Below, in pieces: positions 12,132 through 44,740 of a stretch of DNA of 44,740 nucleotides. This DNA is from a virus (Duplodnaviria; Heunggongvirae; Uroviricota; Caudoviricetes), in IMG/VR virus record IMGVR_UViG_2617271072_000006, positions 1 to 44,740 of that record; one strand, 5' to 3'. Both the position numbers and the translations under genes were made by a program. Below the pieces are notes generated by a model. The model ran no database searches, was not told where the DNA came from, and saw nothing but the letters and a program-made list of their open reading frames with translations. Every line of letters starts with the position of its first letter. The stretch's first letter is position 1.

Positions 12132-12217
12132 CAGGTTCAGAAATGGCGAAAGCCGGTCTGCGGGAACAGAGCCGACTTTCAGGTGCAAATCGTAACGCAC
12201 TCATTGCGGAAGGAATT

Positions 12218-13845: not shown

Positions 13846-13944
13846 CGGGCAAAGAGGCAATTATTCATTATGAGTAACTTTCTAAATTTTTTTGAGCCAG
13901 ATTAGTGGTCTTGGATTCAGTTTACGTCTCAGATACTGAGAAGA

Positions 13945-13959
13945 ATCACAATTTGTGAT
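13945..13959. promoter_or_regulatory. 15-bp perfect palindrome ATCACAATTTGTGAT upstream of the PRTase-like/NADAR operon
   Basis: Dyad symmetry ATCACAA-T-TTGTGAT about 90 bp upstream of ATG 14050, in the AT-rich leader of the cargo island. Confidence 0.35.
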
Positions 13960-14049
13960 ACATGTTAACATTATGACTTTTAAGGCTTTAACTGAATTAT
14001 TTTAAGAGTATTCTGACCCTTTCGTATCAATGCATGAACAGGAATCCAC

Positions 14050-15069: not shown

Positions 15070-15071
15070 TC

Positions 15072-15682
15072 ATGAGCTATAGACTATACCTGTTTCACAA
15101 CACAGTTTCTTTCAGGAAAACCACCGAGAAATGGGGTGGTCTTTCCAACATGGCCAAAGGATATCCGCTCTTCGTTAATGGTATACCCATTCAATCGAGT
15201 GAAATTCTTTACCAAGCATGCCGATATCCAGACTATCCAGATATCCAAAGGGTTATTATTACCCAAGCCAACCCTTACGAAGCTAAACAAACCGCCAGAA
15301 CCTTCGAGGCCAAAACCCGTACTGGTTGGGAAAAAATCGAGTTTCGGTAATGAAATGGTGTGTCTGCGTTAAGCTTTGCCAGAACTGGGAATCGTTCTTC
15401 GCGCTATTGGATAGCACAGGAGATCATGACATTGTTGAGCACTCAGAGAAGGACCAATTTTGGGGGGCTAGTAAGGACTCCGAAGGTAACTTTTATGGCA
15501 TGAACGTGTTAGGTCGTATCCTTATGGATGCGAGAGATATTGCAAGAAAGAAGGGGCCTGCAGGGTTTGCTACGATACCGCCGCTACCCTTGGATAGGTT
15601 TCTTCTGCTCGGGGAGCAAATACGTGATGTCACTTTCTCTCCACCACCGATGGATTCAGGGCAAAGCTTATCGCTTTTTTAA
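15072..15682 (+). CDS. NADAR (YbiA-like N-glycosidase) domain protein; frameshifted as assembled
   Basis: ORFs 15066-15350 and 15326-15682 together align to YbiA as recalled (LSNMAKGYP...SSEILYQACRY, then WEK..VMKW...IVEHSEKDQFWGA...GMNVLGRILMDAR); frames join if the A6 run at 15331-15336 were A7. Confidence 0.75.
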
Positions 15683-16153
15683 TGTGGCTGTTGTTCCTCT
15701 CTCGGTCGTGACAGTTCTGCAACCCCGCTTTGGCGGATTTTTTATAAATTATGCAACTTATTGACTTGATACCGATATTTCAGACTTTAACATAGCAGCC
15801 AAAATCTAGGACGAAGGCGACAAAGTAAACGTTGAATTGGCTGCCATCGGCGTAGCGTTCAAAGAGTGGATGAATATGTCGGTTATAGCGGAAGCGGTGA
15901 TGCGTGAGCAGACATCGCTCTGCCCAAGGCATCCGCCCCTCGACATCTTAAGCAGGAAGGTGAAAAATGATAAGTGCAGAAGGACTGCAGCGGTTACTTA
16001 ATTTATCGGAGCCTCCATCTGATGAACTGATTGATGTTTATCTTCAATTCAGCATGATTTTTCCTAGGGTCGAACAAAGTTTTTTTTGGTGGCTTTGCTA
16101 AGGGGGAAGACAGTTTAAATTATGCTCGAACGTTACTTGACGCCGGGATAAAG

Positions 16154-16450
16154 GTGCCCAACGAACTTTTTCACGATTTTAAGCAGAGATACATTTTGAA
16201 CGGGGATGCGCAGGAAAGACTTGACGCCCTCTGTTTCGGTCGAGAGAGAGATAAGCGGGGAATAGTTAATGGGCTTCAAAATGACGCAGCAACAGATCTA
16301 AACACCATGTCTACAGTATTAAAGATAGTTATAAGGATAAGAAATAACCTTTTCCACGGAAATAAAGACGCTTATCTTTTTGTTGATTCTCAAGAGCAAG
16401 CGCAACTATTGAGATGGTGCGTGAGATTTCTCCAAGGATTATTAAATTAA
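16154..16450 (+). CDS. Hypothetical protein (possible R-x4-H HEPN-like motif); may extend upstream to ~15966
   Basis: 98-aa GTG-start ORF; a 44-codon ATG ORF from ~15966 fuses in frame if the T8 run near 16076-16083 were T7, giving ~161 aa; contains RNNLFH. Confidence 0.35.
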   Translation: MPNELFHDFKQRYILNGDAQERLDALCFGRERDKRGIVNGLQNDAATDLNTMSTVLKIVIRIRNNLFHGNKDAYLFVDSQEQAQLLRWCVRFLQGLLN

Positions 16451-16639
16451 TCTGCCTTTGATTTTCACTAATCAACTCGCCATAATCATGTCATCGGAGC
16501 CTGAACAACTCCGGTGACTTCTGCGCTAAACGGGGACGTTTATGCGCACATACAATCCAAACTCTCTTCTCCCTTCACAGATGCAGAAATGCACCTGCGA
16601 TTTTTTGCATCCAGCGCCTGACCTCTGCGGAGGTGAAGC

Positions 16640-17095
16640 GTGAACCTACCACAAGATGGCATCAAACTGCATCGTGGTAACTTCACCGCTATCGGTCAGC
16701 AGATCCAGCCTTATCTGGAGGACGGCAAATGCTTTCGCATGGTGCTTAAACCGTGGCGCGAGAGACGCAGTCTTTCCCAGAATGCACTTAGCCACATGTG
16801 GTACAGCGAAATCAGTGAATACCTCATAAGCAGGGGGAAATCGTTCGCTACTGCAGCATGGGTAAAAGATGCTCTCAAACACACATACCTCGGTTATGAA
16901 ACCAAAGACCTGGTTGATGTCGTAACCGGTGAAATCACCACTATTCAGTCGTTACGTCATACCTCCAATCTTGATACCGGAGAGATGTATGTCTTCCTGT
17001 GTAAGGTTGAAGCCTGGGCGATGAATATTGGCTGCCACCTGACTATTCCGCAGAGCTGCGAGTTCCAGCTGCTGCGCGACAAGCAGGAGGCGTAA
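16640..17095 (+). CDS. ninB: NinB-family recombination protein
   Basis: 151-aa ORF with NinB-like motif ([20 protein letters not shown]); first gene of the nin block after the cargo island. Confidence 0.7.
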
Positions 17096-17265
17096 TGGCT
17101 ACACCGCTTATTCGTGTCATGAACGGACACATCTACAGAGTACCAAATCGTCGTAAGCGTAAGCCTGAGCTGAAACCATCCGAAATACCAACACTGCTCG
17201 GATATACCGCCAGCCTGGTTGATAAAAAATGGTTGCGACTGGCAGCAAGGAGGAATCATGGCTGA
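17095..17265 (+). CDS. ninE: NinE-like protein
   Basis: 56-aa [59 protein letters not shown], recognised as DLP12-type NinE; not in ORF track (<60 aa). Confidence 0.7.
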   Translation: MATPLIRVMNGHIYRVPNRRKRKPELKPSEIPTLLGYTASLVDKKWLRLAARRNHG

Positions 17266-17548
17266 TTTGAGAAAAGCAGCGCGTGGTCGGGAATGCCAGG
17301 TAAGAATCCCTGGCGTATGTAATGGCAACCCTGAAACGTCTGTACTGGCACATATCCGGCTGACTGGATTGTGCGGCACCGGTACGAAACCGCCAGACCT
17401 GATTGCAACCATTGCATGTTCTGCCTGCCACGACGAAATCGACCGCCGCACGCATTTTGTTGACGCTGGATATGCAAAAGAATGCGCGCTGGAAGGTATG
17501 GCGAGAACACAGGTTATCTGGCTGAAAGAGGGGGTTATTAAGGCGTGA
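17258..17548 (+). CDS. ybcO: YbcO-like DUF1364 protein (putative nuclease)
   Basis: Start ATG 17258 with AAGGAGG RBS; [34 protein letters not shown]...CSACHDEID Cys/His motif. Confidence 0.75.
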
Positions 17549-17907
17549 ATACCTACAGCATCACATTACCCTGGCCTCCGAGCAATAATCGCTATTACCG
17601 CCATAATCGCGGGCGCACGCACGTCAGCGCAGAGGGGCAGGCATACCGCGATAACGTCGCCCGAATCATTAAAAACGCAATGCTGGATATCGGCCTGGCT
17701 ATGCCTGTGAAAATCCGCATTGAGTGCCACATGCCGGATCGCCGTCGCCGTGACCTGGATAATCTGCAAAAAGCCGCTTTTGACGCACTCACTAAAGCAG
17801 GTTTCTGGCTGGATGATGCTCAGGTCGTTGATTACCGCGTTGTGAAGATGCCTGTTACCAAAGGTGGGAGGCTGGAGCTGACCATCACTGAACTGGGAGA
17901 TGAATGA
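17545..17907 (+). CDS. rusA: RusA Holliday-junction resolvase
   Basis: 120-aa [45 protein letters not shown]... matching E. coli RusA as recalled. Confidence 0.95.
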
Positions 17908-18044
17908 TGTTTGAGTCTTATATGGCAGAACGTCTTCGCCGCCGCTGGGTGCGCCTGCGCTTATATCGTTTTCCTGGTTCTGTTTTGACCGATTACCGGA
18001 TACTGAAGAATTACGCCAAAACACTGAAAGGAGCTGCCGCATGA
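17904..18044 (+). CDS. ylcG: YlcG-like small protein
   Basis: 46-aa [44 protein letters not shown]..., start overlaps rusA stop, stop overlaps the next ATG. Confidence 0.7.
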
Positions 18045-18730
18045 ATACCCAATATTTACAGTATGTCCGCGAGCAACTCATGGTGGCTACCGCTGATTTG
18101 TGCGGAGCAACGAAAGGCCAGCTTGAAGCCTGGCTGGAGCATGCACAATTTGATACTGGTACATACAAACGAAAGAAGCGACGCATTCTGGATGAGGTAA
18201 CTGGCAAGATTATTATGCTGGATAATCCGCCGATTTCCGGTAAGCAGTCGTACGCAAAAGGTTCATCTGTCGCCCTGATCAGTCCGGTCGAGTTTTCAAC
18301 CTCTTCATGGCGCCGCGCTGTTCTGTCTCTCGATGAGCATCAGAAAGCATGGTTGCTGTGGAGTTACAGTGAAAATATTCGCTGGGAGCATCAGGTTGCC
18401 ATAACGCAGTGGGCATGGAGCGAGTTTAAGACTCTGTTGGGTACCAGAAAAATTGCAGGTAAGACACTGGAACGCCTGAAGAAGTTGATCTGGCTGGCGG
18501 CACAGGATGTGAAGAGCGAACTGGCAGGGCGTGAGGCTTATGAATACCAGGAACTGGCGTCACTGGTGGGAGTGACATCAAAAAACTGGTCTGAGACATT
18601 CACTGAACGCTGGGTTGCAATGAAGCACATTTTTCTACAGCTTGATAGCGAAGCTTTATTGCTTCTAACGAGAACACGTTCAAAACAAAAGGCGACATTT
18701 TCACAGCAAAATATTGCAAAACTGGATTAA
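18041..18730 (+). CDS. Putative late antiterminator (Q-like), assigned by position
   Basis: 229-aa ORF directly after rusA-ylcG and before the late leader and lysis genes; not lambda Q by sequence. Confidence 0.5.
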   Translation: MNTQYLQYVREQLMVATADLCGATKGQLEAWLEHAQFDTGTYKRKKRRILDEVTGKIIMLDNPPISGKQSYAKGSSVALISPVEFSTSSWRRAVLSLDEHQKAWLLWSYSENIRWEHQVAITQWAWSEFKTLLGTRKIAGKTLERLKKLIWLAAQDVKSELAGREAYEYQELASLVGVTSKNWSETFTERWVAMKHIFLQLDSEALLLLTRTRSKQKATFSQQNIAKLD

Positions 18731-18911
18731 AAAGCATATATTTCATATAAATCTGATATTTTGCCAATGTTGTACGCACTGGCAGTAATCCAAATTCAAG
18801 CTCGAGGTTTAAAGCCTTGGGCTTTTCTGTTTCTGGGCGGTGAGTATCCTTCCAACCTACCCCAGCCAGGGTGTCTTCAGCTGTTGAGTTGATATTGCTT
18901 AACCCTCTGTT

Positions 18912-18936
18912 GCCAGCTACATGCTGGCTTTTTTAT
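18912..18936 (+). terminator. Rho-independent terminator (tR'-like) in the late leader
   Basis: GCCAGC-TACAT-GCTGGC hairpin followed by TTTTTTAT, between the Q-like gene and the holin. Confidence 0.6.
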
Positions 18937-19039
18937 TCCAGGCTTGCGGGGAGCATCAACTCCGTGCTTTGTCGTTAAATTACCCCGTGAGCCTGATTTC
19001 TGACATTTAACGTCCCGGCCTTTTGTCGGCGGCGAAACA

Positions 19040-19357
19040 TTGGCTATTCATATGCACGAAAAAGAGAGCCTTGCCGGAGCGTTCTGGCTCGTTTTGCTGA
19101 TCATCGCAGGTTGGGGCGGTCTGGTCCGCTACCTGATAGATGTGAAGCAGAGTAAAGCAACGTGGAGTTGGATAAATGCTCTGGCTCAGATAGTTGTATC
19201 AGGATTCACCGGTGTTATTGGTGGCCTGATCAGCATCGAAAGTGGATTCAGTATTTACATGATTCTCGCGACAGCGGGGATTAGTGGTGCGATGGGTTCG
19301 GTTGCACTGACGTACTTCTGGGAACGACTGACAGGGGTGAAAAATGCAAAATCTTAA
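19040..19357 (+). CDS. Putative holin
   Basis: 105-aa ORF with three predicted hydrophobic segments, MAIHM N-terminus and charged C-terminus, immediately upstream of the endolysin. Confidence 0.7.
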   Translation: MAIHMHEKESLAGAFWLVLLIIAGWGGLVRYLIDVKQSKATWSWINALAQIVVSGFTGVIGGLISIESGFSIYMILATAGISGAMGSVALTYFWERLTGVKNAKS

Positions 19358-19820
19358 TCCTCAGCGTAAAGCTTTCCTCGATATGCTGGCGTGGTCAGAG
19401 GGAACTGATAACGGACGTCAGAAAACCAGAAATCATGGTTATGACGTCATTGTAGGCGGAGAGCTATTTACTGATTACTCCGATCACCCTCGCAAACTTG
19501 TCACGCTAAACCCAAAACTCAAATCAACAGCAGCCGGGCGCTACCAGCTTCTTTCCCGTTGGTGGGATTCCTATCGTAAGCAGCTTGGCCTGAAAGACTT
19601 CTCTCCGAAAAGCCAAGACGCTGTGGCATTGCAGCAGATTAAAGAGCGTGGCGCTTTACCGATGATTGATCGCGGTGATATCCGTCAGGCTATCGATCGT
19701 TGCAGCAATATCTGGGCGTCGTTACCTGGTGCAGGTTACGGTCAGTATGAACATAAAATCAGTGACCTGATTTCCCGGTTTAAAGAGGCTGGTGGGGTGG
19801 TAAATGAAGTTGAGCTATAA
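19344..19820 (+). CDS. R: Endolysin, lambda R-type lytic transglycosylase
   Basis: 158-aa ORF near-identical to lambda R as recalled (NPQRKAFLDMLAWSEGTDNGRQKTRNHGYDVIVGGELFTDYSDHPRKL...). Confidence 0.95.
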   Translation: MQNLNPQRKAFLDMLAWSEGTDNGRQKTRNHGYDVIVGGELFTDYSDHPRKLVTLNPKLKSTAAGRYQLLSRWWDSYRKQLGLKDFSPKSQDAVALQQIKERGALPMIDRGDIRQAIDRCSNIWASLPGAGYGQYEHKISDLISRFKEAGGVVNEVEL

Positions 19821-20196
19821 GCTGGTTATCGCTGCATTCTTCTTTATTGTCATTGGTTCTTTCATCTGGTCTGCCAACCACTACTACAGCAAATATCAGC
19901 ACGAAAAGAAACGTGCTGATGAGGCTGTACAAAATGCCAAATCGGCAACTGCCATTACCAATAACGTCCTGCAATCACTGCAAATCGTCAATACAGTACT
20001 GGAGGCTAACCAGCATGCAAAACAGCAGATCGCACTGGGGTCACAGAGAACCCAGGAAGATATCAAAATGGCTGTTGCGGATGATGATTGTGCTTCACGT
20101 GCTGTGCCTGCTGCCGCTGCTGACCGGTTGCGGAAGTACGCGGACAGTTTACGTGAGCATTCCGGTGGCACCACTGCCACCCAGCCTGACTTCTGA
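19804..20196 (+). CDS. Rz: Rz-like i-spanin
   Basis: 130-aa ORF with N-terminal transmembrane segment and coiled-coil-like periplasmic region, overlapping R end. Confidence 0.7.
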   Translation: MKLSYKLVIAAFFFIVIGSFIWSANHYYSKYQHEKKRADEAVQNAKSATAITNNVLQSLQIVNTVLEANQHAKQQIALGSQRTQEDIKMAVADDDCASRAVPAAAADRLRKYADSLREHSGGTTATQPDF

Positions 20197-25421: not shown

Positions 25422-26050
25422 TGTACCGCTGAGTCTGAAATCTGTCAGTGACTCCGGTGAGTTTGAAGGGTATGGCTCCGTCTTTGGTGTAAAGGACAGC
25501 CACGATGATGTGGTGATGTCCGGGGCATTTGCTGCTTCCCTGCGGGCGTGGAGTGACAGAAAAGCGTTACCTGCGCTGCTCTGGCAGCACCGCATGGATG
25601 AACCCATCGGTGTTTACACCGAAATGAAGGAAGACGATGTCGGGCTTTACGTCAGGGGACGGTTGCTTATTGATGATGATCCCCTCGCAAAAACGCGCAC
25701 ATGCACACATGAAGGCCGGTTCGTTAACCGGCCTTTCTATTGGGTACGTCCTGAAAGACTGGGAATACGACCGGAGCAAAGAAGCCTTTCTGCTGAAAGA
25801 AATCGACCTCTGGGAAGTCAGCCTGGTGACGTTCCCGTCTAACGACGAGGCGCGGATCAGCGACGTCAAGAACGCACTGGCCCGCGGGGAAATCCCCGAA
25901 CAGAAAAAAATCGAAAGAGTCCTGCGTGATGTCGGACTCTCCCGTACCCAGGCCAAAGCATTCATGGCCGGGGGCTATGGCGCACTGTCCCTGCGCGACG
26001 CTGAGGATGTGGGCTCTGCACTGAATGCACTGAAAAATCTGAACTTCTAA
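25399..26050 (+). CDS. Prohead protease (HK97 family); frameshifted as assembled
   Basis: ORFs 25363-25842 and 25637-26050 are two frames of one protease; frames differ by one base around the C4/A5 runs at 25681-25693; start may be 25363 or ATG 25399. Confidence 0.75.
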
Positions 26051-31720: not shown

Positions 31721-33628
31721 ATGGCTGATAATTTTCAGCTGAAAGCCATCATCACCGCCGTTGACAGGCTATCCGGCCCGCTTAAAGGTATGCAGCGTCA
31801 GCTTAAGGGATTTCAGAAAGAAGTCTCCAGCCTTGCTCTGGGCGCTGCCGGGGCTGGTACTGCAATAATGGGGGCACTGGCACTCCCTGTAAAATCAGCC
31901 ATCACCCTTGAATCGAAGATGGCTGATGTCCGCAAAGTGGTGGACGGTCTGGATACGCCGGATGCATTTAAGGCCATGACGGAGCAGGTACGCGCTTTGT
32001 CTACAGAGCTTCCCATGTCTGCAGACGGGATCGCGGAAATTGTGGCGGCTGGCGGTCAGGCCGGGATTGCACGTGATGAACTGATGCAGTTTGCCACTGA
32101 TGCGGTGAAGATGGGCGTGGCCTTTGATACAACGGCTGAAGAGTCCGGGCAGATGATGGCCCAGTGGCGTACTGCGTTTAATATGACACAGGATGAAGTG
32201 GCTGGGCTGGCTGACAAAATCAACTACCTTGGTAATACCGGCCCGGCGAATGCGAAGAAAATCTCCGATATTGTTACGCGTATTGGTCCTTTAGGTGGTG
32301 TTGCTGGTGTGGCTTCCGGCGAAATCGCGGCGATGGGGGCAACCATTGCCGGGATGGGCGTGGAGTCAGAAATTGCCGCCACAGGGATCAAGAACTTCAT
32401 GCTTTCCCTGACCGCGGGAAATTCCGCGACAAAATCGCAGAAACAGGCATTGCGTTTTCTGCGGATCAATCCGAAGAAATTAGCTACTGATATGCAGAAA
32501 GATGCCCGGGGCACCATGCTGTCTGTACTGGATGCGATGGCTAAAGTGCCTAAAGAAAAACAGGCAGCTGTGCTGAATGCCCTGTTCGGGAAAGAGTCTC
32601 TGGGCGCGATAGCACCTCTGCTGACTAACCTTGATTTGTTGCGTACCAACTTCAGGCGGGTTGCGGATTCCCAGCAATATGGCAGTTCGATGCAGAAGGA
32701 ATATGCTTCGAGGGCAGCGACGACGGAAAACCAGCTTTTACTTCTGCAAAATCAACTTGATGCCATTTCTTCCACGCTGGGGGAAACGTTTCTTCCTGAG
32801 GTTAATGATGGTCTTGAAGCGGTAAAACCGCTCCTTGAGGAAGTGAGAACGTTTTGTCCGTGAAAACCCGGAGCTCGTTAAGACCATTGCTAAAATCGGT
32901 CTGGCCTTACTGACGGTGGGAGCCGCTGCAGGCTCTTTGTCCAGAATTATGAAAGTTCTCGGCGGTGTGATGAATATGACGCCTGCTAAGGGGCTGATTG
33001 CTCTTCTGGTTGGTGGCGCTTACCTCATTATTGATAACTGGGAAACCGTAGGTCCTGTCATAAAAAGTCTGGCACGTGGTGGATGAAACGGCGCAGGCGA
33101 TGGGGGGGATGGGAAACTGTTCTGAAAGCGATTGCCCTGTTTATGGCAACCAAATGGGTTGCTGACGTTACCAAATCCATTACCGCAGTGACCAGAGAGA
33201 TGCGTACGCTGGGGAAGGTATCGGCAGAAACGGGATTGATGGGGAAAGGCCGCGGCTTTATCGGGAAGGCCGGGGTATATGGTTTTCTGGGAACCCTGAT
33301 ATATGAGCCGGTTAAAGATACTCTGGAAAGTGTTGTTCCTGAAGATACGGTTAACTGGCTGGATAATAAAGGGCTGTTTCTGGCTTCAGACTGGACGCCT
33401 TTTTTTGATCGTAAAGAGTACGAGCAGTATCAGGCCAGCCTGAGTCAGTACAAACCCAATGTTCCGCTGTTGAATCCATCTTCTTCCATGACACAGCACA
33501 GCGAGCTGAAAGTCACGTTCGAGAATGCTCCGCCAGGTATGAAGATAATTGATGTACCGGGAAAAGCCGATCCCCTGATGAAAATCACGCACGATGTGGG
33601 GTATTCCCCTTTTCGTTTTCCACGATAA
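31721..33628 (+). CDS. Tail tape measure protein; two frameshifts as assembled
   Basis: ORF 31721-32863 and 33083-33628 are linked by an open frame 32856-33086 (VRENPELVKTIAKIGLALLTVGAAAG...); frame changes at the T4 run 32852-32855 and near 33071-33083. Confidence 0.8.
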
Positions 33629-33652
33629 CGCAGTCCTTTTTGAGGTCAGTCT

Positions 33653-35029
33653 ATGGATTTATCCTCATTTCCCACCCGACCTTCATTACTTTCGTCGTCT
33701 TCAGGCTGGCGTGACAGGCTTCAGGACGCGTCATTTCGCGGCGTGCCGTTTAAGGTTGAAGAAGAAAGTGCGGGAACCGGTCGCCGTGTGGAAACACATG
33801 AATACCCGAACCGCGACAAGCCCTATACCGAAGATCTGGGAAAAGTCACTTTCCGCCCGTCCATCACAGCTTATGTGGTGGGAGATGACTGCTTTGACCA
33901 GCGCGATCGCCTGATTGAAGCGCTGAATAAACCCGGTCCCGGCACGCTTGTCCACCCGACATATGGTGAGCTGAAAGTCTGTGTTGACGGGGAAGTTCGG
34001 GTCAGCACATCGAAAAGTGAAGGGCGTATTGTCCGCTTTGACCTGAAGTTTGTCGAAGCAGGAGAACTCTCTTACCCCACATCAGGTGCGGCGACGGCGC
34101 AGACGCTGATGTCATCCTGTTCTGCACTGGATGACTGCATTAGTGACAGCTTCAGCGGTTTCAGTATCGATGGTGTGGCGGATTTCGTGCAGAACGACGT
34201 TATCGGTAATGCCAGCATAATGCTGGGGTATGTTTCTGATGCGATGAAAGTGGTGGATTCTGCCGTATCGGATGCCGCCAGGCTGTTGCAGGGGGATATC
34301 TCGGTACTTCTGCCGCCGCCATCGTCAGGCAAAAATTTCGTTGAGCAGGTGCAGAAAATGTGGCGTACCGGGAAACGCCTTTATGGTAACGCCAGCGACC
34401 TGGTTACCATGATCAAAACGCTTTCCGGTGTCAGCCTCGGCAGCGATCTGCAACCGCGCGGCGTCTGGAAAACGGACAGTAAAACCACCGCCACGGCGAC
34501 GCAGCAGCGTAACGTGGTTGCCAGCACCCTTCGTACGACCGCAATCAGCGAAGTGGCGTATGCCGTCACCCGATTGCCTGCGCCAACAACTTCCGCGGTG
34601 ATGCAGAATTCCGCAGTGGGGCAGGCAACAACACCCGCGCAGAGCACTGGCTGGCCTTCCGTCACGCATCCGGCACTGAACAATGCACCGGCGGTGAAAA
34701 ACACGGTTGACCTGCCGACGTGGGAAGAACTGACTGACATTCGCGACACACTGAATACGGCAATTGATAAGGAGTTGTCCCGTACAACCAGTGATGCGCT
34801 GTTTCTGGCGCTGCGCCGGGTGAAAGCAGATCTGAATGCGGATATCAACACGCGCCTTGAACAGTCTGCACGGATCATTCAGCGCACACCGGATGAGGTT
34901 TTACCCGCGCTGGTGCTGGCGGCGACCTGGTTTGATAACGCGGCGCGTGACGCGGACATTATCCGGCGTAATGCCATTACGCATCCCGGCTTTGTGCCGG
35001 TGATCCCTCTGAAGGTGCCAGTGCAATGA
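33653..35029 (+). CDS. Mu gpN-like DNA circularisation / tail protein
   Basis: 458-aa ORF with DRLQDASFRGVPFKVEEE N-terminal motif; position between tape measure and baseplate hub. Confidence 0.7.
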   Translation: MDLSSFPTRPSLLSSSSGWRDRLQDASFRGVPFKVEEESAGTGRRVETHEYPNRDKPYTEDLGKVTFRPSITAYVVGDDCFDQRDRLIEALNKPGPGTLVHPTYGELKVCVDGEVRVSTSKSEGRIVRFDLKFVEAGELSYPTSGAATAQTLMSSCSALDDCISDSFSGFSIDGVADFVQNDVIGNASIMLGYVSDAMKVVDSAVSDAARLLQGDISVLLPPPSSGKNFVEQVQKMWRTGKRLYGNASDLVTMIKTLSGVSLGSDLQPRGVWKTDSKTTATATQQRNVVASTLRTTAISEVAYAVTRLPAPTTSAVMQNSAVGQATTPAQSTGWPSVTHPALNNAPAVKNTVDLPTWEELTDIRDTLNTAIDKELSRTTSDALFLALRRVKADLNADINTRLEQSARIIQRTPDEVLPALVLAATWFDNAARDADIIRRNAITHPGFVPVIPLKVPVQ

Positions 35030-36105
35030 ACGACAATGTCACGCTACGGGTAAATGGCCGGGAGTGGAATGGCTGGACATCGGTGCGCATCGGTGCCGGT
35101 ATTGAACGGCTGGCGCGGGATTTCAGTGTGGAGATCACCCGCCAGTGGCCGGGAGATGAGGGTATCACCACGCTTCAGCCGCGCATTAAAAACGGTTCAA
35201 AAGTGGAAGTGCTGATTGGTGATGAGCTGGTGATCACCGGCTGGGTGGAGGCGACGCCCGTTCGTTACGATGCCCGTTCGGTCAGCACCGGTATTGCCGG
35301 ACGTAGTCTGACGGCTGACCTGATTGACTGTGCAGCCGAACCGACACAGTTTAACGGACGCTCGCTGGTGCAGATTGCGCAGGCGCTTGCTGCGCCTTTC
35401 GGCATTGAGGTGGTGAACAGCGGTGCGCCGTCGGGTGTTATTCCTGATGTTCAGCCTGATCACGGTGAAACGGTGATTGAGGTAATCAACAAAATACTCG
35501 GTCAGCAGCAGGCACTGGCTTACGACGACCCGCACGGCAGGCTGGTGATTGGCGGTATTGGCTCAACGCGGGCACATACTGCGCTGGTACTCGGGGAAAA
35601 CATCCTTTCCTGTGATACGGAGAAGAGTATCCGGGAGCGGTTTTCTGTTTACCAGGTGGCGGGGCAGCGTGCCGGAAACGACGATGATTTCGGTGAGGCC
35701 ACCACCACCGCGCTGCGGGCCCGCACAGAGGACGCATTTATTGCCCGTTACCGTCCGATGTATATCAGGCAGACAGGGCAGGCTACGGGGGCAGGCTGTA
35801 TTGCCCGTGCGGACTTTGAAGCCAGACAACGGGCGGCGCGGACGGATGAAACCACCTATGTGGTGCAGGGCTGGCGACAGGGTAACGGTACGCTGTGGCA
35901 GCCCAACCAGCGGGTGATTGTCTTTGATCCGGTCTGTGGTTTCGACAATACCGAACTGCTTGTTTCGGAAGTCACGTTTACTCAGGACCAGAACGGCACC
36001 CTGACGGAAATCCGTGTCGGCCCACCTGATGCTTATCTGCCTGAACCCGAAGCCCCCGGCGCGCGAAAAAAGAAAAAAGCCAGAGTACAGGAGGACCCGT
36101 TCTGA
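35026..36105 (+). CDS. Mu gpP-like baseplate hub protein
   Basis: 359-aa ORF; conserved order N-P-gp45-gp46-gp47-gp48 of Mu-type tails. Confidence 0.7.
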   Translation: MNDNVTLRVNGREWNGWTSVRIGAGIERLARDFSVEITRQWPGDEGITTLQPRIKNGSKVEVLIGDELVITGWVEATPVRYDARSVSTGIAGRSLTADLIDCAAEPTQFNGRSLVQIAQALAAPFGIEVVNSGAPSGVIPDVQPDHGETVIEVINKILGQQQALAYDDPHGRLVIGGIGSTRAHTALVLGENILSCDTEKSIRERFSVYQVAGQRAGNDDDFGEATTTALRARTEDAFIARYRPMYIRQTGQATGAGCIARADFEARQRAARTDETTYVVQGWRQGNGTLWQPNQRVIVFDPVCGFDNTELLVSEVTFTQDQNGTLTEIRVGPPDAYLPEPEAPGARKKKKARVQEDPF

Positions 36106-36653
36106 TGAGGACGATTGAAGCCATGCAGCGACAACTCCTCGGCCTGATTGGGCGGGCCGTGGTGAAAAGCATCAGTGCCGCCACGAAATGTCAGACCGTG
36201 GATGTGTCTCTGATTGCCGGTGAACCCAAAGCCGGGGTTGAACATCTTGAACCCTACGGTTTTACCGCAAGGGCAAACAGCGGTGCGGAAGCGGTGGTGT
36301 TGTTTCCGGATGGCGACCGTTCTCATGCGGTGGTTGTTACGGTGTCGGACCGGCGCTACCGCCTGAAAGGGCTGCAGACGGGTGAGGTGGCTGTCTATGA
36401 CGATCAGGGGCAGTCCGTGACGCTGACCCGGGAGGGGATCGTGGTGGACGGTGCAGGTAAAACGATCACGTTTCGCAATGCGCCTAAGGCTCGTTTTGAA
36501 ATGGACCTGGAAGTGACCGGACAGGTGAAAGACCTGTGCGACTCCAGCGGCACCACCATGTCAGCGATGCGGCTTGCCTATAACGGGCATCGTCACAGAG
36601 AGAACGGTCAGGGCAGTAACACCGACAAACCTGATAAAGCGATGGAGGCATGA
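36105..36653 (+). CDS. Baseplate assembly/spike protein (Mu gp45 / gpV-like)
   Basis: 182-aa ORF following the hub gene. Confidence 0.7.
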   Translation: MRTIEAMQRQLLGLIGRAVVKSISAATKCQTVDVSLIAGEPKAGVEHLEPYGFTARANSGAEAVVLFPDGDRSHAVVVTVSDRRYRLKGLQTGEVAVYDDQGQSVTLTREGIVVDGAGKTITFRNAPKARFEMDLEVTGQVKDLCDSSGTTMSAMRLAYNGHRHRENGQGSNTDKPDKAMEA

Positions 36654-37078
36654 TGGAACTGTGGCTGACGGTGAACGGTAAACGCACCTGCGCTAGCGCA
36701 CCGCTGGATCCGCTGACCCGTGCCGTGGTGATTTCCCTGTTCACCTGGCGGCGGGCTGAACCTGATGACAATGCCGACGTCCCGATGGGATGGTGGGGGG
36801 ATACCTGGCCTGCGGTACAGAATGACCGTTACGGCTCCCGACTGTGGCTGCTTCAGCGCAGCAAACTGACCAATCAGCTGGTGCAGACGGTAAGGGGGTA
36901 TATCCGCGAATGCCTGCAATGGATGATTGATGACGGCGTGGTGTCCCGTATTGATCTGGATATCCGCCGCACCGGGATTAATGAACTGGGTAACAGTATC
37001 ACTCTCTGGCGTCGTGACGGACCGGTAATGATTTCTTTTGATGATCTGTGGAGTGCGATAACGCATGGCGGACAGTGA
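36650..37078 (+). CDS. Mu gp46-like baseplate protein
   Basis: 142-aa ORF in conserved position. Confidence 0.7.
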   Translation: MMELWLTVNGKRTCASAPLDPLTRAVVISLFTWRRAEPDDNADVPMGWWGDTWPAVQNDRYGSRLWLLQRSKLTNQLVQTVRGYIRECLQWMIDDGVVSRIDLDIRRTGINELGNSITLWRRDGPVMISFDDLWSAITHGGQ

Positions 37079-38123
37079 ATTTCAGCGCCCGACGCTGGCA
37101 GAAAATATCAGTATGCTCCGTAACGATTTATTCGCCAGGCTGGACGTCAGCGACACGCTCCGGCGCATGGATGAAGACGTGCGGGCAAAGGTGTATGCGG
37201 CGGCGCTGCATACGGTTTACGGTTACATCGATTATCTGGCAATGAACATGCTGCCTGACCTGTGCGATGAGTCCTGGCTGGCGCGACATGCTGCGATGAA
37301 ACGGTGTCCGCGCAAGGGGGCCACGGCTGCCAGCGGGTATATGCGCTGGGAAGGTGTCAGCGATGGCCTGAAAGTGACCGCCGGGAGCGTGATTCAGCGC
37401 GATGACCTGGTTCAGTACACGGCAACTGCCGATGCAACCAGCTCCGGTGGTGTCCTGCGCGTGCCGATCGCCTGCTCAAGTGCAGGCGCGGTCGGTAACG
37501 CTGACGACGGTACGGCATTAATCCTGGTCACGCCGGTGAATGGTCTGCCGTCTTCCGGTGTGGCTGACACCCTGACAGGCGGATTTGATACTGAAGAGCT
37601 GGAAACGTGGCGCGCCCGCGTCATTGAGCGGTATTACTGGACGCCTCAGGGCGGGGCTGACGGGGACTATGTCGTCTGGGCTAAAGAAGTGCCCGGCATT
37701 ACCCGCGCATGGACATACCGACACTGGATGGGAACGGGGACTGTCGGTGTGATGATTGCCAGCAGTGACCTGATTAATCCCATTCCGGAAGAGTCAACGG
37801 AAACGGCGGCAAGACAACATATCGGGCCATTGGCCCCGGTGGCAGGCTCTGATTTGTATGTATTCAGGCCGGTGGCGCATAAAGTGGATTTTCATATCCG
37901 CGTGACGCCGGACACACCGGAAATACGGGCTGCCATCACCGCCGAGTTGCGTTCGTTCCTGCTGCGTGATGGTTATCCGCAGGGAGAACTGAAGGTGTCA
38001 CGTATCAGTGAAGCGATTTCCGGTGCGAACGGGGAATACAGCCATCAGTTGCTTGCACCGGCAGACAATATCTCCATTGCAAAAAATGAGCTGGCAGTTC
38101 TGGGGACGATTTCATGGACGTGA
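37065..38123 (+). CDS. Baseplate J-like protein (Mu gp47-like)
   Basis: 352-aa ORF in conserved position. Confidence 0.75.
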
Positions 38124-38698
38124 CAAACGATGATTATATCCGTCTGTTGTCGGCACTGTTGCCGCCCGGTCCGGCGTGGTCAGTCAGCGATCCGGCGATT
38201 GCCGGTGCGGCACCGTCATTAACCCGCGTTCATCAGCGTGCGGATGCCCTGATGCGGGAGCTGGATCCGCGCACCACCACTGAACTGATAAACCGCTGGG
38301 AGCGTCTGTGCGGTCTGCCGGATGAATGTATTCCCGCAGGGACACAGACCCTTCGCCAGCGTCAGCAACGGCTGGATGCGAAGGTTAATCTGGCGGGCGG
38401 CATCAATGAGGATTTTTACCTTGCACAGCTTGCTGCCCTGGGCAGACCAGACGCCACTATCACGCGATACGATAAAAGCACGTTCACCTGCTCATCGGCC
38501 TGTACTGACGCAGTGAATGCGCTGGAATGGCGGTATTACTGGCAGGTCAACATGCCAGCTGCCACCAACACCACCTGGATGACATGTGGCGATCCCTGTG
38601 ATTCCGCACTGCGTATCTGGGGCGACACCGTTGTCGAGTGTGTGCTTAACAAACTCTGCCCGTCGCATACCTACGTAATTTTTAAATATCCGGAGTAA
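38114..38698 (+). CDS. Mu gp48-like tail protein
   Basis: 194-aa ORF between baseplate J and tail fibre genes. Confidence 0.7.
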
Positions 38699-38701
38699 TC
38701 C

Positions 38702-39457
38702 ATGCATCGTATAGACACGAAAACCGCGCAGAAGGATAAGTTCGGCGCGGGTAAGAACGGTTTTACCCGTGGTAACCCCCAGACCGGCACACCTGCCACC
38801 GATCTGGATGATGACTACTTTGACATGTTGCAGGAGGAGCTTTGCGGCGTGGTGGAGGCATCCGGTGCCAGCCTGGAGAAGGGGCGGCACGACCAGCTGC
38901 TTACCGCGCTTAGTGCGCTACTGTTAAGCCGCAAAAATCCGTTTGGCGATATCAAATCGGACGGCACGGTGAAAACGGCTCTCGAAAACCTTGGTTTGGG
39001 AGAAGGCTCTGCATTACCTGTTGGTGTGCCTGTTCCGTGGCCCTCAGCCACTCCGCCAACAGGCTGGCTAAAATGCAACGGAGCAGCTTTTTCTGCTGAA
39101 GAATACCCGGAACTGGCAAAGGCTTACCCGACAAATAAATTGCCTGATTTACGCGGTGAATTTATTCGTGGCTGGGATGACGGACGTGGAGTGGATGCCG
39201 GGCGACAATTATTATCTTCACAGGGGGATGCAATAAGAAATATTGAGGGATTCGCAGATGGCGGGATCGGCATGTCTTTTGATGCAATCAGAGGGGCTTT
39301 TTACGATGCAGGAACACGATCAGCGAGAATGCCGAATAACACAACTGATATAGGCAAAACCGATGACCTTGGATTCGACGCCTCTCGTGTCGTGCCAACA
39401 GCTAATGAAAACCGTCCACGTAACATCGCCTTTAATTATATTGTGAGGGCTGCATAA
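38702..39457 (+). CDS. Tail fibre protein, constant N-terminal part plus variable C-terminal tip 1 (Mu S / P2 H-type)
   Basis: 251-aa ORF; first 102 aa identical to the inverted copy at 40452-41036; tip contains PWP...[23 protein letters not shown]...[17 protein letters not shown]. Confidence 0.85.
38981..39004 (+). other. Din-invertase-type crossover site (gix/hix/cix-like) at the constant/variable junction of tail fibre gene 1
   Basis: CTCGAAAACC-TT-GGTTTGGGAGAA: dyad AAAACC..GGTTT with TTCTC-type outer half-sites, resembling hix/gix consensus as recalled. Confidence 0.6.
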
Positions 39458-40050
39458 TGAAACCTGTTTTTGATGAAAATGGGCTGGCTACAGTGCCGGG
39501 TGATATGCGTTGTTATTATTATGATGCAGTAACGTCTGAATATACGGGCTGGTCTGATGAATATATTAATACTGGCGTAAGTATGCCCGCCTGTTCCACT
39601 GGTATTGACCCGGGCGAATACATTCCGGGGCAAGTGGCAGTATTCACGGGTAAGGGATGGAGCCATGAAGAAGACCATCGCAATGAGACTGTTTACTCAA
39701 CAGAAAATGGCGCAGCTGTTACAGTGGATTATATCGGTGCCATCAAAGACGGTTATGTCACGCTTTCACCGTTAACGCCATATGATAAATGGGATGGTGA
39801 GAAATGGGTGACAGATACTGAGGCACAACACGATGCCGCAGTAGAAGCGGCAGAAGCACAGCGCCAGTCACTGATTGATGCAGCAATGGCTTCCATTAGT
39901 CTGATTCAGCTGAAATTACAGGCCGGGCGGAAACTGACGCAGGCAGAAACAACCCGGCTTAACGCTGTGCTGGATTACATTGACGCGGTGACGGCAACAG
40001 ATACCAGCACCGCGCCGGATGTCATCTGGCCTGAACTGCCGGAGGCGTAG
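39457..40050 (+). CDS. Tail fibre assembly chaperone (Tfa) for tip 1
   Basis: 197-aa ORF directly after fibre tip 1; C-terminal [11 protein letters not shown] motif shared with the convergent tfa. Confidence 0.8.
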
Positions 40051-40450
40051 GCCATTCAATATCGGGTGCTGTTGAAGTATCAACACGCATCAGCAGCACA
40101 CGGTATTTCTTCCATTCGGTGAGAGTTGAAGTTTCTTCATCAGTTGCGATATCAGCATCAACAGCATCCTGACGCCAGGATATTTCACTGTCAGCTTTTT
40201 CCCGTAATTGGGATTTTTTAACTTCAGCAATAGCTATTAATTCCTTTTTGGTCGGCTGAGGAATATCTATCAGTGCTGGTTTTCCATTCAGTGTTCCAAT
40301 CTGTTTTCCTGGTGGAATATCCATAAATAACTTTTTATGTTCTTCCTCACTGACTATTACACCATCATCAGGCCACAGACCTGATGCCTCAAATTTTTCT
40401 TTCTCCGATATGGGGAAAAAGCCATTTGCTTTAGCGCTCCATACGTACAT
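40022..40450 (-). CDS. Tail fibre assembly chaperone (Tfa) for tip 2
   Basis: 142-aa ORF convergent with and overlapping the other tfa by 29 bp; C-terminal [11 protein letters not shown] motif. Confidence 0.8.
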
Positions 40451-40451
40451 A

Positions 40452-41036
40452 TCAATACCCCACCGCTATAATGTCCACATTAAATCCTCCGGGACCTGCC
40501 TGCCAGATGCTGGCCCCTGTTAATGATTTTGTTTGATGAACAACCGCCACATTTGCTGGCGATTGTGTTTCAGTTGTTACAGTACCGATATCATTCCAGT
40601 TAATTGAGATGGAATAGTTCGTTGTTGTAAACGACCGGGGGAAAGTTATGTGTCTTACATTGGTGCCAATAGGAAATCCAAGATAAACACGCTGAATTAT
40701 CATTCCTCCAGGTAACATAACCCAGTTAGCACCTTCTCCCAAACCAAGGTTTTCGAGAGCCGTTTTCACCGTGCCGTCCGATTTGATATCGCCAAACGGA
40801 TTTTTGCGGCTTAACAGTAGCGCACTAAGCGCGGTAAGCAGCTGGTCGTGCCGCCCCTTCTCCAGGCTGGCACCGGATGCCTCCACCACGCCACAAAGCT
40901 CTTCCTGCAACATGTCAAAGTAGTCATCATCCAGATCGGTGGCAGGTGTGCCGGTCTGGGGGTTACCACGGGTAAAACCGTTCTTACCCGCGCCGAACTT
41001 ATCCTTCTGCGCGGTTTTCGTGTCTATACGATGCAT
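40452..41036 (-). CDS. Tail fibre protein of the inverted module, same constant N-terminus with different C-terminal tip 2
   Basis: 194-aa ORF; residues 1-102 identical to fibre 1, then unrelated C-terminus. Confidence 0.85.
40734..40759 (-). other. Second Din-type crossover site, inverted relative to site 1
   Basis: TTCTCCCAAACC-AA-GGTTTTCGAGAG, exact reverse complement of the site at 38981-39004, at the constant/variable junction of fibre gene 2. Confidence 0.6.
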
Positions 41037-41039
41037 GGA

Positions 41040-41624
41040 TTACTCCGGATATTTAAAAATTACGTAGGTATGCGACGGGCAGAGTTTGTTAAGCACACAT
41101 TCGACAACGGTGTCGCCCCAGATACGCAGCGCGGAATCACAGGGATCGCCACATGTCATCCAGGTGGTGTTTGTGGCGGCTGGCATGTTGACCTGCCAGT
41201 AATACCGCCATTCCGGCGCATTCACCGCGTCAGTACAGACCGATGAGCAGGTGAACGTGCTTTTGTCGTATCGCGTGATGTTGGCATCTGGTCTGCCCAG
41301 GGCAGCAAGCTGTGCAAGATAAAAATTCTCGTTGATGCTGCCCGCCAGGTTAACCTTCGCATCCAGCCGTTGCTGACGCTGACGAAGGGTCTGTGTCCCT
41401 GCGGGAATACATTCATCCGGCAGACCGCACAGACGCTCCCAGCGGTTTATCAGTTCAGTGGTGGTGCGCGGATCCAGCTCCCGCATCAGGGCATCCGCAC
41501 GCTGATGAACACGGGTTAATGACGGTGCCGCACCGGCAATCGCCGGATCGCTGGCTGACCACGCCGGACCGGGCGGCAACAGTGCCGATAACAGGCGGAT
41601 GTAATCATCGTTTGTCACGTCCAT
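41040..41624 (-). CDS. Mu gp48-like tail protein, second (inverted) copy
   Basis: 194 aa, 6 substitutions relative to 38114-38698 (~97% identity). Confidence 0.7.
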
Positions 41625-42673
41625 GAAATCGTCCCCAGTACCGCCAGTTCGTTTTTCGCAATGGAGATATTGTCCACCGGTGCAAGCAACTGATGGCTGT
41701 ATTCCCCGTTCGCACCGGAAATCGCCTCACTGATACGCGATACCTTCAGTTCTCCCTGCGGATAACCATCACGCAGCAGGAACGAACGCAACTCCGCGGT
41801 AATGGCAGCCCGTATTTCTGGTGTGTCCGGCGTCACGCGGATATGAAAATCCACCGTATGTGCCACCGGCCTGAATACATACAAATCAGAGCCTGCCACC
41901 GGGGCCAGTGGCCCGATATGTTGTCTTGCTGCCGTTTCCGTTGATTCTTCCGGAATGGGGTTAATCAGGTCACTGCTGGCAATCATCACACCGACAGTCC
42001 CCGTTCCCATCCAGTGTCGGTATGTCCATGCGCGGGTAATGCCGGGCACTTCTTTAGCCCAGACGACATAGTCCCCGTCAGCCCCGCCCTGAGGCGTCCA
42101 GTAATACCGCTCAATGACGCGGGCGCGCCACGTTTCCAGCTCTTCAGTATCAAATCCGCCTGTAAGGGTGTCAGCCACACCGGAAGACGGCAGACCATTC
42201 ACCGGCGTGACCAGGATTAATGCCGTACCGTCGTCAGCGTTACCGACCGCGCCTGTAGTTGAGCAAGTGATCGGCACACGCAGGACACCACCGGAGCTGG
42301 TTGCATCGGCAGTTGCCGTGTACTGAACCAGGTCATCGCGCTGAATCACGCTCCCGGCAGTCACCTTCAGGCCATCGCTGACACCTTCCCAGCGCATATA
42401 CCCGCTGGCAGCCGTGGCCCCCTTGCGCGGACACCGTTTCATCGCAGCATGTCGCGCCAGCCAGGACTCATCGCACAGGTCAGGCAGCATGTTCATTGCC
42501 AGATAATCGATGTACCCGTAAACCGTATGCAGCGCCGCCGCATACACCTTTGCCCGCACGTCTTCATCCATGCGCCGGAGCGTGTCGCTGACGTCCAGCC
42601 TGGCGAATAAATCGTTACGGAGCATACTGATATTTTCTGCCAGCGTCGGGCGCTGAAATTCACTGTCCGCCAT
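41615..42673 (-). CDS. Baseplate J-like protein, second (inverted) copy
   Basis: 352 aa, a few substitutions relative to 37065-38123. Confidence 0.75.
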
Positions 42674-43087
42674 GCGTTATCGCACTCCACAGATCATCAA
42701 AAGAAATCATTACCGGTCCGTCACGACGCCAGAGAGTGATACTGTTACCCAGTTCATTAATCCCGGTGCGGCGAATATCCAGATCAATACGGGACACCAC
42801 GCCGTCATCAATCATCCATTGCAGGCATTCGCGGATATACCCCCTTACCGTCTGCACCAGCTGATTGGTCAGTTTGCTGCGCTGAAGCAGCCACAGTCGG
42901 GAGCCGTAACGGTCATTCTGTACCGCAGGCAGGTATCCCCCCACCATCCCATCGGGACGTCGGCGTTGTCATCAGGCTCCGCCCGCCGCCAGGTAAACAG
43001 GGAAATCACCACGGCGCGGGTCAGCGGATCCAGCGGTGCGCTGGCGCAGGTGCGTTTACCGTTCACCGTCAGCCACAGTTCCATCAT
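42660..43087 (-). CDS. Mu gp46-like protein, second copy; frameshifted as assembled
   Basis: ORFs 42869-43087 and 42660-42947 correspond to the two halves of gp46; one G missing relative to copy 1 near 42925-42935. Confidence 0.65.
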
Positions 43088-43722
43088 GCCTCCATCGCTT
43101 TATCAGGTTTGTCGGTGTTACTGCCCTGACCGTTCTCTCTGTGACGATGCCCGTTATAGGCAAGCCGCATCGCTGACATGGTGGTGCCGCCGGAGTCGCA
43201 CAGGTCTTTCACCTGTCCTGTCACTTCCAGGTCCATTTCAAAACGTGCCTTAGGCGCATTGCGAAACGTGATCGTTTTACCTGCACCGTCCACCACGATC
43301 CCCTCCCGGGTCAGCGTCACGGACTGCCCCTGATCGTCATAGACAGCCACCTCACCCGTCTGCAGCCCTTTCAGGCGGTAGCGCCGGTCCGACACCGTAA
43401 CAACCACCGCATGAGAACGGTCGCCATCCGGAAACAACACCACCGCTTCCGCACCGCTGTTTGCCCTTGAGGTAAAACCGTAGGGTTCAAGATGTTCAAC
43501 CCCTGCTTTGGGTTCACCGGCAATCAGGGACACATCCACGGTCTGACATTTCGTGGCGGCACTGATGCTTTTCACCACGGCCCGCCCAATCAGGCCGAGG
43601 AGTTGTCGCTGCATGGCTTCAATCGTCCTCATCAGAACGGGTCCTCCTGTACTCTGGCTTTTTTCTTTTTCCGCGCGCGGAGGCTTCGGGTTCAGGCAGA
43701 TAAGCATCAGGCGGACCGACAC
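43084..43722 (-). CDS. Baseplate gp45-like protein, second copy (apparent N-terminal extension)
   Basis: 212-aa ORF; last 182 aa match 36105-36653; extension arises from an indel difference in the gpP/gp45 junction. Confidence 0.65.
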   Translation of the reverse strand: MSVRLMLICLNPKPPRAEKEKSQSTGGPVLMRTIEAMQRQLLGLIGRAVVKSISAATKCQTVDVSLIAGEPKAGVEHLEPYGFTSRANSGAEAVVLFPDGDRSHAVVVTVSDRRYRLKGLQTGEVAVYDDQGQSVTLTREGIVVDGAGKTITFRNAPKARFEMDLEVTGQVKDLCDSGGTTMSAMRLAYNGHRHRENGQGSNTDKPDKAMEA

Positions 43723-44710
43723 GGATTTCCGTCAGGGTGCCGTTCTGGTCCTGAGTAAACGTGACTTCCGAAACAAGCAGTTCGGTATTGTCGAAACCAC
43801 AGACCGGATCGAAGACAATCACCCGCTGGTTGGGCTGCCACAGCGTACCGTTACCCTGTCGCCAGCCCTGCACCACATAGGTGGTTTCATCCGTCCGCGC
43901 CGCCCGTTGTCGGGCTTCAAAGTCAGCACGCGCAATACAGCCTGCCCCCGTGGCCTGCCCTGTCTGCCTGATATACATCGGACGGTAACGGGAAATAAAT
44001 GCGTCCTCTGTGCGGGCCCGCAGCGCGGTGGTGGTGGCCTCACCGAAATCATCGTCGTTTCCGGCACGCTGCCCCGCCACCTGGTAAACAGAAAACCGCT
44101 CCCGGATACTCTTCTCCGTATCACAGGAAAGGATGTTTTCCCCGAGTACAAGCGTGGTATGTGCCCGCGTTGAGCCAATACCGCCAATCACCAGCCTGCC
44201 GTGCGGGTCGTCGTAAGCCAGTGCCTGCTGCTGACCGAGTATTTTGTTGATCACCTCAATCACCGTTTCGCCGTGATCAGGCTGGACATCAGGAATAACG
44301 CCCGACGGCGCACCGTTGTTCACCACCTCAATGCCGAAAGGCGCAGCAAGCGCCTGCGCAATCTGTACCAGCGATCGTCCGTTAAACTGTGTCGGTTCGG
44401 CTGCACAGTCAATCAGGTCAGCGGTCAGACTACGTCCGGCAATACCGGTGCTGACCGAACGGGCATCGTAACGAACGGGAGTCGCCTCCACCCAGCCGGT
44501 GATCACCAGCTCATCACCAATCAGCACTTCCACTTTTGAACCGTTTTTAATGCGCGGCTGAAGCGTGGTGATACCCTCATCTCCCGGCCACTGGCGGGTG
44601 ATCTCCACACTGAAATCCCGCGCCAGCCGTTCAATACCGGCACCGATGCGCACCGATGTCCAGCCATTCCACTCCCGGCCATTTACCCGTAGCGTGACAT
44701 TGTCGTTCAT
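43619..44710 (-). CDS. Mu gpP-like baseplate hub, second copy
   Basis: 363-aa ORF near-identical to 35026-36105 except for a frame difference in the last ~20 codons. Confidence 0.7.
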   Translation of the reverse strand: MNDNVTLRVNGREWNGWTSVRIGAGIERLARDFSVEITRQWPGDEGITTLQPRIKNGSKVEVLIGDELVITGWVEATPVRYDARSVSTGIAGRSLTADLIDCAAEPTQFNGRSLVQIAQALAAPFGIEVVNNGAPSGVIPDVQPDHGETVIEVINKILGQQQALAYDDPHGRLVIGGIGSTRAHTTLVLGENILSCDTEKSIRERFSVYQVAGQRAGNDDDFGEATTTALRARTEDAFISRYRPMYIRQTGQATGAGCIARADFEARQRAARTDETTYVVQGWRQGNGTLWQPNQRVIVFDPVCGFDNTELLVSEVTFTQDQNGTLTEIRVGPPDAYLPEPEASARGKRKKPEYRRTRSDEDD

Positions 44711-44740
44711 TGCACTGGCACCTTCAGAGGGATCACCGGC
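44707..44740 (-). CDS. 3' end of gpN-like gene of the second module (partial, runs off window)
   Basis: Minus-strand sequence mirrors the gpN/gpP overlap of copy 1 (..VIPLKVPVQ stop overlapping ATG). Confidence 0.5.
   Translation of the reverse strand, partial: PVIPLKVPVQ

Follow-up and report, generated by a model that had tools for sequence, protein, structure and literature searches.

An e14-type Pin/P-region tail-fibre switch between two inverted tail modules: a probable assembly mis-join of two related prophages

The Pin/P-region host-range switch of prophage e14, reportedly described in the 1980s, is widespread among Escherichia coli prophages. In K-12, the e14 genes occur in the order ymfQ-stfP-tfaP-tfaE-stfE-pinE, with an exact pixL crossover site at the stfP junction (the ymfQ-stfP side) and a pixR site beside pinE. 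The inner half-site and the central AA of pixR are the same as those of pixL, and its outer half is CGTTTATGAAAA (Table 3, PMC3241671). In the E. coli prophage described here, which is e14/SfV-like and has a Mu-like tail, the P region is a 1.7-kb segment. Its switch, that of the Din-family serine invertase Pin, is of the Pin/P-region type that is already known and to which it adds nothing new. The segment stands between two inverted tail modules, and we put the probability at roughly 78% that this tail-P-tail join is an assembly mis-join of two prophages, referred to below as A and B.

The window, that is, the whole stretch of DNA that was analysed, comprises the last 44,740 nt of draft contig CBWN010000010.1 (109,154 nt; assembly GCA_000529855.1), and its fibre genes correspond to the e14 set (ymfQ-stf-tfa/tfa-stf). 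The fibre gene of prophage A (38702..39457, plus strand) encodes a protein of 251 aa, consisting of a 102-aa constant part and tip 1, which contains a Collar domain, and is followed on the same strand by tfa1 (39457..40050), the tail-fibre assembly chaperone of tip 1. The second fibre gene (40452..41036, minus strand) encodes 194 aa, in which the 102-aa constant part is joined to tip 2, and is followed by tfa2 (40022..40450, minus strand), the tip 2 chaperone, which converges with tfa1 in a 29-bp overlap. Both chaperones match Caudo_TAP, and tip 2 matches Gp53-like_C with a score of 24.3 bits, slightly under the curated Pfam cutoff of 24.9. The open reading frames and Pfam matches bear out the initial annotation, made from the sequence alone, which had placed tip 1 and tfa1 on the plus strand opposite tfa2 and tip 2 on the minus strand with exactly this overlap. 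The N-terminal 102 aa are identical in the two fibre proteins, and the end of this constant part is encoded across the pixL site; both tips are in frame after the sequence ...NLGLGEG, each has one chaperone, and the two cassettes are opposed. Upstream of the fibre gene are homologues of Mu gp44-gp48, with the Pfam domains GpP-like, Phage_Mu_Gp45, GP46, Baseplate_J and Phage_Mu_Gp48, a baseplate block of the kind expected of an SfV-like or e14-like temperate phage with a Mu-type contractile tail. At the DNA level the window matches phages SfV, SfI, SfII, SfIV and SKA5.

Each crossover site is the constant/variable junction of one fibre gene. An exact scan finds TTCTCCCAAACCAAGGTTTTCGAGAG exactly twice in the window, directly at 40734-40759 (plus strand) and in reverse complement at 38979-39004, and a fuzzy search allowing up to 6 substitutions finds no third copy of the 26-mer there. 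Read on the minus strand, the left site (38979..39004) is TTCTCCCAAACC AA GGTTTTCGAGAG, the pixL of e14 (site table of PMC3241671), and the right site (40734..40759, plus strand) is also a complete pixL, so that both agree with the published sequence at 26 of 26 positions. The two inverted 26-bp sites, with their shared central dinucleotide AA, fit the dix consensus. Identical sites in inverted orientation had been claimed before and are indeed present, with the start of the left one now at 38979 instead of 38981, and their supposed kinship with Din sites holds on comparison with the published ones. In native elements the right-hand position is occupied by pixR, whose outer half-site is CGTTTATGAAAA or CGTATATGAAAA; pixR is absent from the window, which has two copies of pixL in place of the native pixL on the fibre side and pixR on the invertase side. 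A comparison of sites in OW968111, CDF6, B1S11 and K-12 found both pixL and pixR in all four.

Inversion of this segment is apparent among related genomes. In OW968111 tip 1 is fused to the constant part and tip 2 lies beside pixR-pinE; in CDF6 the reverse holds, with the same flanking genes on both sides (baseplate genes and ymfQ on one, pinE, GIY-YIG and AraC genes on the other), and the point at which the two orientations exchange lies inside the shared TTCTCCCAAACCAA. The 194-aa fibre protein of the window is identical to the product of prophage A in its flipped state in strain CDF6. The Logan contig L019 represents the window's own prophage A in flipped form, with 0 mismatches over 36000-39006 and, over 38986-40892, a sole mismatch at position 38990, inside the crossover site. 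Opposite orientations are thus found between OW968111 on the one hand and CDF6 and L019 on the other, and also between B1S11 and GTEN_24. Because of the pixL identity, the e14 gene set and the occurrence of both orientations in relatives, where pixR and pinE come next in every case, the segment is identified as the known Pin/P switch; the proposal that it is a Din-family invertible segment with the layout of Mu G, P1 C or e14 P is upheld by the 26/26 match, by K-12 e14 and by these relatives. In the native element, Pin would cut both sites at their central AA, pixL inside the fibre gene and pixR beside pinE. By homology with Hin and Gin, Pin dimers on the two sites would synapse at a Fis-bound enhancer, and a 180-degree rotation of subunits after cutting would leave the segment inverted, with either tip 1 (and tfa1) or tip 2 (and tfa2) fused in frame to the 102-aa constant part.

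The Fis-dependent recombinational enhancer lies within the 5′ part of the invertase gene; the requirement for such an enhancer is known from Hin (PMC3798978). A 184-aa Resolvase/HTH_7 gene lies right after the segment in relatives. In the window, no serine invertase gene (Resolvase plus HTH_7) is situated directly outside either site, a tblastn search of the window with PinE gave no match at E≤10, and a blastn search with pinE DNA gave chance matches only, with a longest exact run of at most 14 nt, in agreement with the earlier statement that the window contains no invertase. As blastn detects no pinE DNA, the pinE-borne cis enhancer is absent from the window as well, and a diverged enhancer elsewhere is possible. 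The window is best explained as having no invertase because the contig leaves prophage A ahead of pixR and pinE.

The crossover sites also form the inner boundaries of a long inverted repeat (at least 4 kb; 34996-39006 and 40732-44740), which is ~97.7% identical and reaches the last base of the window. Its left arm (34996..39006, plus strand) belongs to prophage A and carries gp44-, gp45-, gp46-, gp47/J- and gp48/YmfQ-like genes together with the fibre constant part; the right arm (40732..44740, minus strand) carries the same genes in the version of prophage lineage B, up to the contig end. Between the arms there are 88 substitutions and two 1-nt indels; 69 of the substitutions are at third codon positions and 71 are synonymous, and since 71 of 88 are synonymous, the arms are taken as two real, diverged lineages. 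Sequencing noise is ruled out as the source of these differences on the same grounds, only the indels being error-like. Over 17459-40750, the window is ~99.9% identical to the thrW prophage of OW968111, an A prophage that runs on into pixR and pinE, and within 32000-39010 there are 0 substitutions between them. There are likewise 0 substitutions over 40852-44740 relative to the B prophage of B1S11. This prophage, at proL/yejM, is composed of the constant part joined to tip 2, tfa2, tfa1′, a tip remnant, a 123-nt pin stub and a DUF262/GmrSD gene, and lineage B resides at proL in both genomes whose flank was identified (B1S11 and L013). The latter, a B variant found in nature at yejM, does not differ from the window over 40142-40892 and has A-type alleles through 40902. 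A hairpin or fold-back of a single-copy prophage is ruled out by the 88 mostly synonymous arm differences and by the match of the right arm, free of substitutions, to the other lineage. An old inverted duplication that later diverged is also ruled out, given that the right arm shows 0 substitutions against present-day B-type prophages at proL.

The join itself probably falls in a 606-bp exact stretch (40142..40747) that is common to native A, in which pixR and pinE follow, and to native B in the form of L013, in which pixL and the constant part follow. Compared with these two elements, all of the window can be accounted for by native A up to a point within 40142-40747 and by the reverse complement of native B from there on. 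The contig would have entered the tfa2′-tip2′ stretch from A, left it into B, where the stretch is fused to that prophage's own constant part, and stopped ~4 kb further on, inside another exact repeat. In place of the native right end, with pixR, pinE and the enhancer, the contig would in this way have acquired the tail module of another, related prophage in inverted form. We infer that the join most likely arose during assembly rather than in the cell.

Several properties of the assembly are consistent with such a mis-join. The contig reads in correct phase through exact inter-arm runs of up to 258 bp, and it stops inside a 367-bp exact A/B run (34889-35255 in left-arm coordinates); the shared stretch of 606 bp was therefore apparently beyond what the assembly could resolve. 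The contig end does not mark the boundary of A/B homology, a possibility ruled out by its position inside the 367-bp run and by the extension of the homology upstream to 33715. The assembly is indel-prone: relative to OW968111, 7 kb contain 0 substitutions but 3 indels in homopolymers, which lie within 250 bp of the tape-measure gene, and several more homopolymer differences separate it from a 98.6% relative. In the right arm, a 1-nt deletion of GG to G (42929..42931, minus strand) relative to the otherwise identical B1S11 splits the gp46-like gene into ORFs of 71 and 65 aa, and another deletion of GG to G relative to B1S11 (43677..43679, minus strand) alters the C-terminus of the gp44-like protein, which becomes 363 aa rather than 359 aa long. 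The resulting frameshifted ORF (43619-44710) occurs in one public contig only, CBWN010000010.1; exact-pattern scans of viral_contigs and genome_contigs with a 40-mer across the right-arm deletion gave no match. These observations do not sustain the initial annotation where it speaks of two complete tail modules, as the second shows only ~4 kb, ends with the contig and has broken gp46-like and gp44-like genes. Nor is a swap of tips between two tail modules borne out: the second module is another lineage, there are two pixL sites with neither pixR nor pinE, the join lies in a stretch shared by A and B, and the structure, unseen in the other genomes examined, is situated where a draft contig ends.

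The same artefact could have arisen by a somewhat different path, which is possible but rather doubtful, and whose share is counted within the probability given for the mis-join. If the culture contained prophage A in both orientations, the assembler may have followed flipped reads from tip 2 into the reverse-complement constant region of A and then jumped to B within the 41-bp stretch (40852-40892) that is common to A and B1S11-type B. Positions 38846-39006 and 40732-40892 are exact reverse complements of one another, the window has A alleles at 10 positions in 40740-40851 where B1S11 differs, with the first B alleles at 40893, and flipped A, as seen in L019, has exactly such a sequence. The A-type alleles of L013 make a jump at 40852-40892 unneeded, however, for a natural B prophage already carries them beyond this interval.

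A junction made in the cell is improbable, and its most credible form is the integration of a circular B-type phage genome, with tip 2 on in its P segment, into the P segment of prophage A. The crossover could have taken place within the 0.6 kb of P that A and B share, or Pin could have acted at pix sites. The product would have the order A-left, P and inverted B, with the reciprocal pin-P-pin junction at a distance of about one phage genome, and Pin acting in trans could afterwards swap tips between both fibre genes. Both junctions of the window are intact, natural in-frame fusions at pixL, and two identical inverted sites make a competent substrate, as in Mu, where gixL is the same as gixR (PMC3241671). 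The right arm represents a true second lineage, as opposed to A folded back on itself; the lineages do recombine, as A/B mosaics found in nature, for example L013, indicate; and an integration of this kind would presumably entail no loss of chromosomal genes. The surveys argue otherwise. The tail-P-tail arrangement was found in none of 5,426 complete E. coli genomes, which gave no match over at least 80% of 38000-41800, and in none of 37 other contigs with the same fibre proteins (13 with the 194-aa and 24 with the 251-aa protein). The exact 194-aa fibre protein is present in 14 contigs, with tail-P-tail in the source contig only; the others with enough flank read stf-tfa2-tfa1′-tip1′-Resolvase, save for the B-type L013, which has the GmrSD-yejM side instead. 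The exact 251-aa protein occurs in 24 other long contigs, representing 5 distinct contexts, and is followed downstream by tfa-tfa′-tip′-Resolvase wherever flank exists. Moreover, a crossover would far more probably fall in the tail homology, which exceeds 5 kb, than in the 0.6 kb of P; those B-type prophages that were examined reside at proL and are defective (truncated pin, IS insertions); and the draft contig, at whose end the structure is found, is prone to indels. Even if the junction were real, the segment would have no nearby cis enhancer or invertase. It is thus unlikely that the contig is correct as it stands, which would mean that two prophages are fused tail to tail through one P segment with two pixL sites, with invertase and enhancer coming from elsewhere, for instance from the pin-P-pin junction.

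The positions of the two prophages bear on how else a cell might produce the junction. The tail genes of prophage A lie on the K-12 plus strand, beside ybhC, and those of prophage B in B1S11 and L013 run in the direction of proL, on the minus strand in K-12 terms; the place and orientation of B in the source strain are assumed from these two other genomes. The shared tfa2′-tip2′ stretches would then be direct repeats ~1.5 Mb apart (~2 Mb if A is at thrW, as in OW968111), the position of B being assumed. With B at proL, a real junction of the window type would amount to a deletion of ~1.5-2 Mb of chromosome, and a clone with no other chromosome than this product could not be viable. Two inversions were worked through by hand and rejected as sources of the junction: Pin inversion between convergent prophages at their usual sites yields only normal-looking Sc-P-pin products, deletion alone giving the junction, and inversion between the homologous tail genes of convergent prophages yields only ordinary constant-part/P/pin products. 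The E. coli region between the two sites, which includes the terminus region, contains many essential genes. A real deletion that fused both prophages at their usual chromosomal sites, by Pin or RecA, is accordingly very improbable even though the junction has exactly the form expected from recombination between directly repeated tfa2′-tip2′ stretches, because it would remove ~1.5-2 Mb including the terminus region if A lies at ybhC (0.81 Mb) or at thrW and B lies at proL (2.29 Mb), and a cell that had lost so many essential genes could not be the sequenced clone.

If the join is a mis-join, its interest lies mainly in annotation. Invertible segments common to several prophages act as repeats that short-read assemblers can cross wrongly, and segments crossed in this manner produce mirror-image loci that look like double tail modules and have no invertase. 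In sequence-only scans, and in the annotation of prophages or defence islands on draft assemblies, such loci could be mistaken for new architectures. Were the junction real, a single inversion would reciprocally swap receptor-binding tips between two fibre genes, and the locus would illustrate how in nature an invertase switch, or its homology, mediates the fusion of two phage genomes, which would bear on phage mosaicism.

The closest described system is the e14 P region, with which the locus shares pixL, ymfQ, the constant N-terminus of the fibre protein and the two opposed cassettes of tip and tfa; the constant part is nearly identical (...ENLGLGEG), whereas the tips of the window are other alleles (Collar and Gp53-like). 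Prophage e14 is a remnant, whereas the host prophage of the window is a complete SfV-like element, and where e14 has pixR and pinE, the window has a second pixL and a second constant region, which are probably an artefact. Similar comparisons extend to the G segment of Mu (Gin; S/U and S′/U′) and the C segment of P1 (Cin), in which inversion at 26-bp sites inside the fibre gene likewise swaps the variable C-terminus together with the chaperone, and the baseplate genes of the window are homologues of Mu gp44-48. The central dinucleotide is AA in the window sites, as in hix, cix and pix, but GA in gix; the segment is 1.7 kb long, with fibres of 194-251 aa, compared with ~3 kb for Mu G; and the invertase of the window type is Pin, in contrast to Gin in Mu and Cin in P1. 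Din-family sites at the constant/variable junctions of tail fibres are shared, too, with the invertible B segment of Shigella boydii (PinB) and with Min, the multiple-inversion system of plasmid p15B (table in PMC3241671), but p15B Min has six sites and multiple cassettes, whereas the window has two sites and two cassettes.

The prophage at yejM in GCA_029523195.1 belongs to lineage B, which is matched by the right arm of the window (40732-44740) and is native at proL/yejM in B1S11. Compared with window positions 40142-44740, however, this B-type prophage displays A-type alleles, those of the lineage that includes the thrW prophage of OW968111, at 40142-40902, B-type alleles between 40902 and 42164, and A-type alleles again from 42164 on (window coordinates). 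It follows from this alternation that the two lineages commonly swap patches of their tail modules.

In the B-type prophages of B1S11 and GTEN_24, the invertase gene is reduced to a 123-nt stub (25810-25932 in the B1S11 sequence, L004, and 14810-14932 in the GTEN_24 sequence, L006). Despite this reduction, the P segment, a Pin-type invertible tail-fibre segment, occurs in opposite orientations among strains with B-type prophages. Either inversion preceded truncation of the invertase gene, or the Pin of another prophage acts in trans.

The tape-measure gene (31721-33628) is split into ORFs of 380 and 181 aa by three homopolymer-length changes relative to OW968111: T3 to T4 at 32855, A7 to A5 at 33066, and G6 to G7 at 33108. 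No substitutions separate the two sequences across the 7 kb compared (32000-39010), and the indels look like sequencing or assembly errors rather than decay. In the right arm, otherwise without substitutions relative to B1S11, two 1-nt GG-to-G deletions (42929-42931 and 43677-43679), which may be genuine or errors, disrupt the gp46-like and gp44-like baseplate genes.

The lambdoid early region holds low-GC genes at 8817-10420, where GC is ~30%, and at 14050-15700. One of these, a SIR2-family gene between a kil-like gene and the repressor, is apparently frameshifted, with a T9 run at 10405 where OkiPb01694 has T8. In relatives, a phosphoribosyltransferase-like gene and then a NADAR gene lie downstream of replication gene P; the window counterpart at this place is a 339-aa ORF (14050-15069). 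These low-GC genes are candidates for cargo that serves in anti-phage defence.

Window 1-20000, and 16456-18772 in particular, stands out in that it is covered to at least 80% by no complete E. coli genome. The overlapping matches along it are consistent with natural lambdoid mosaicism; a second assembly mis-join, in the shared rusA-Q region, is conceivable. The first 5.2 kb (ybhC, integrase) are similar to lambda-like prophages located at ybhC; the likeness is to the prophage of OkiPb01694 over 5261-18772 and to the OW968111 thrW prophage from 17459 on.
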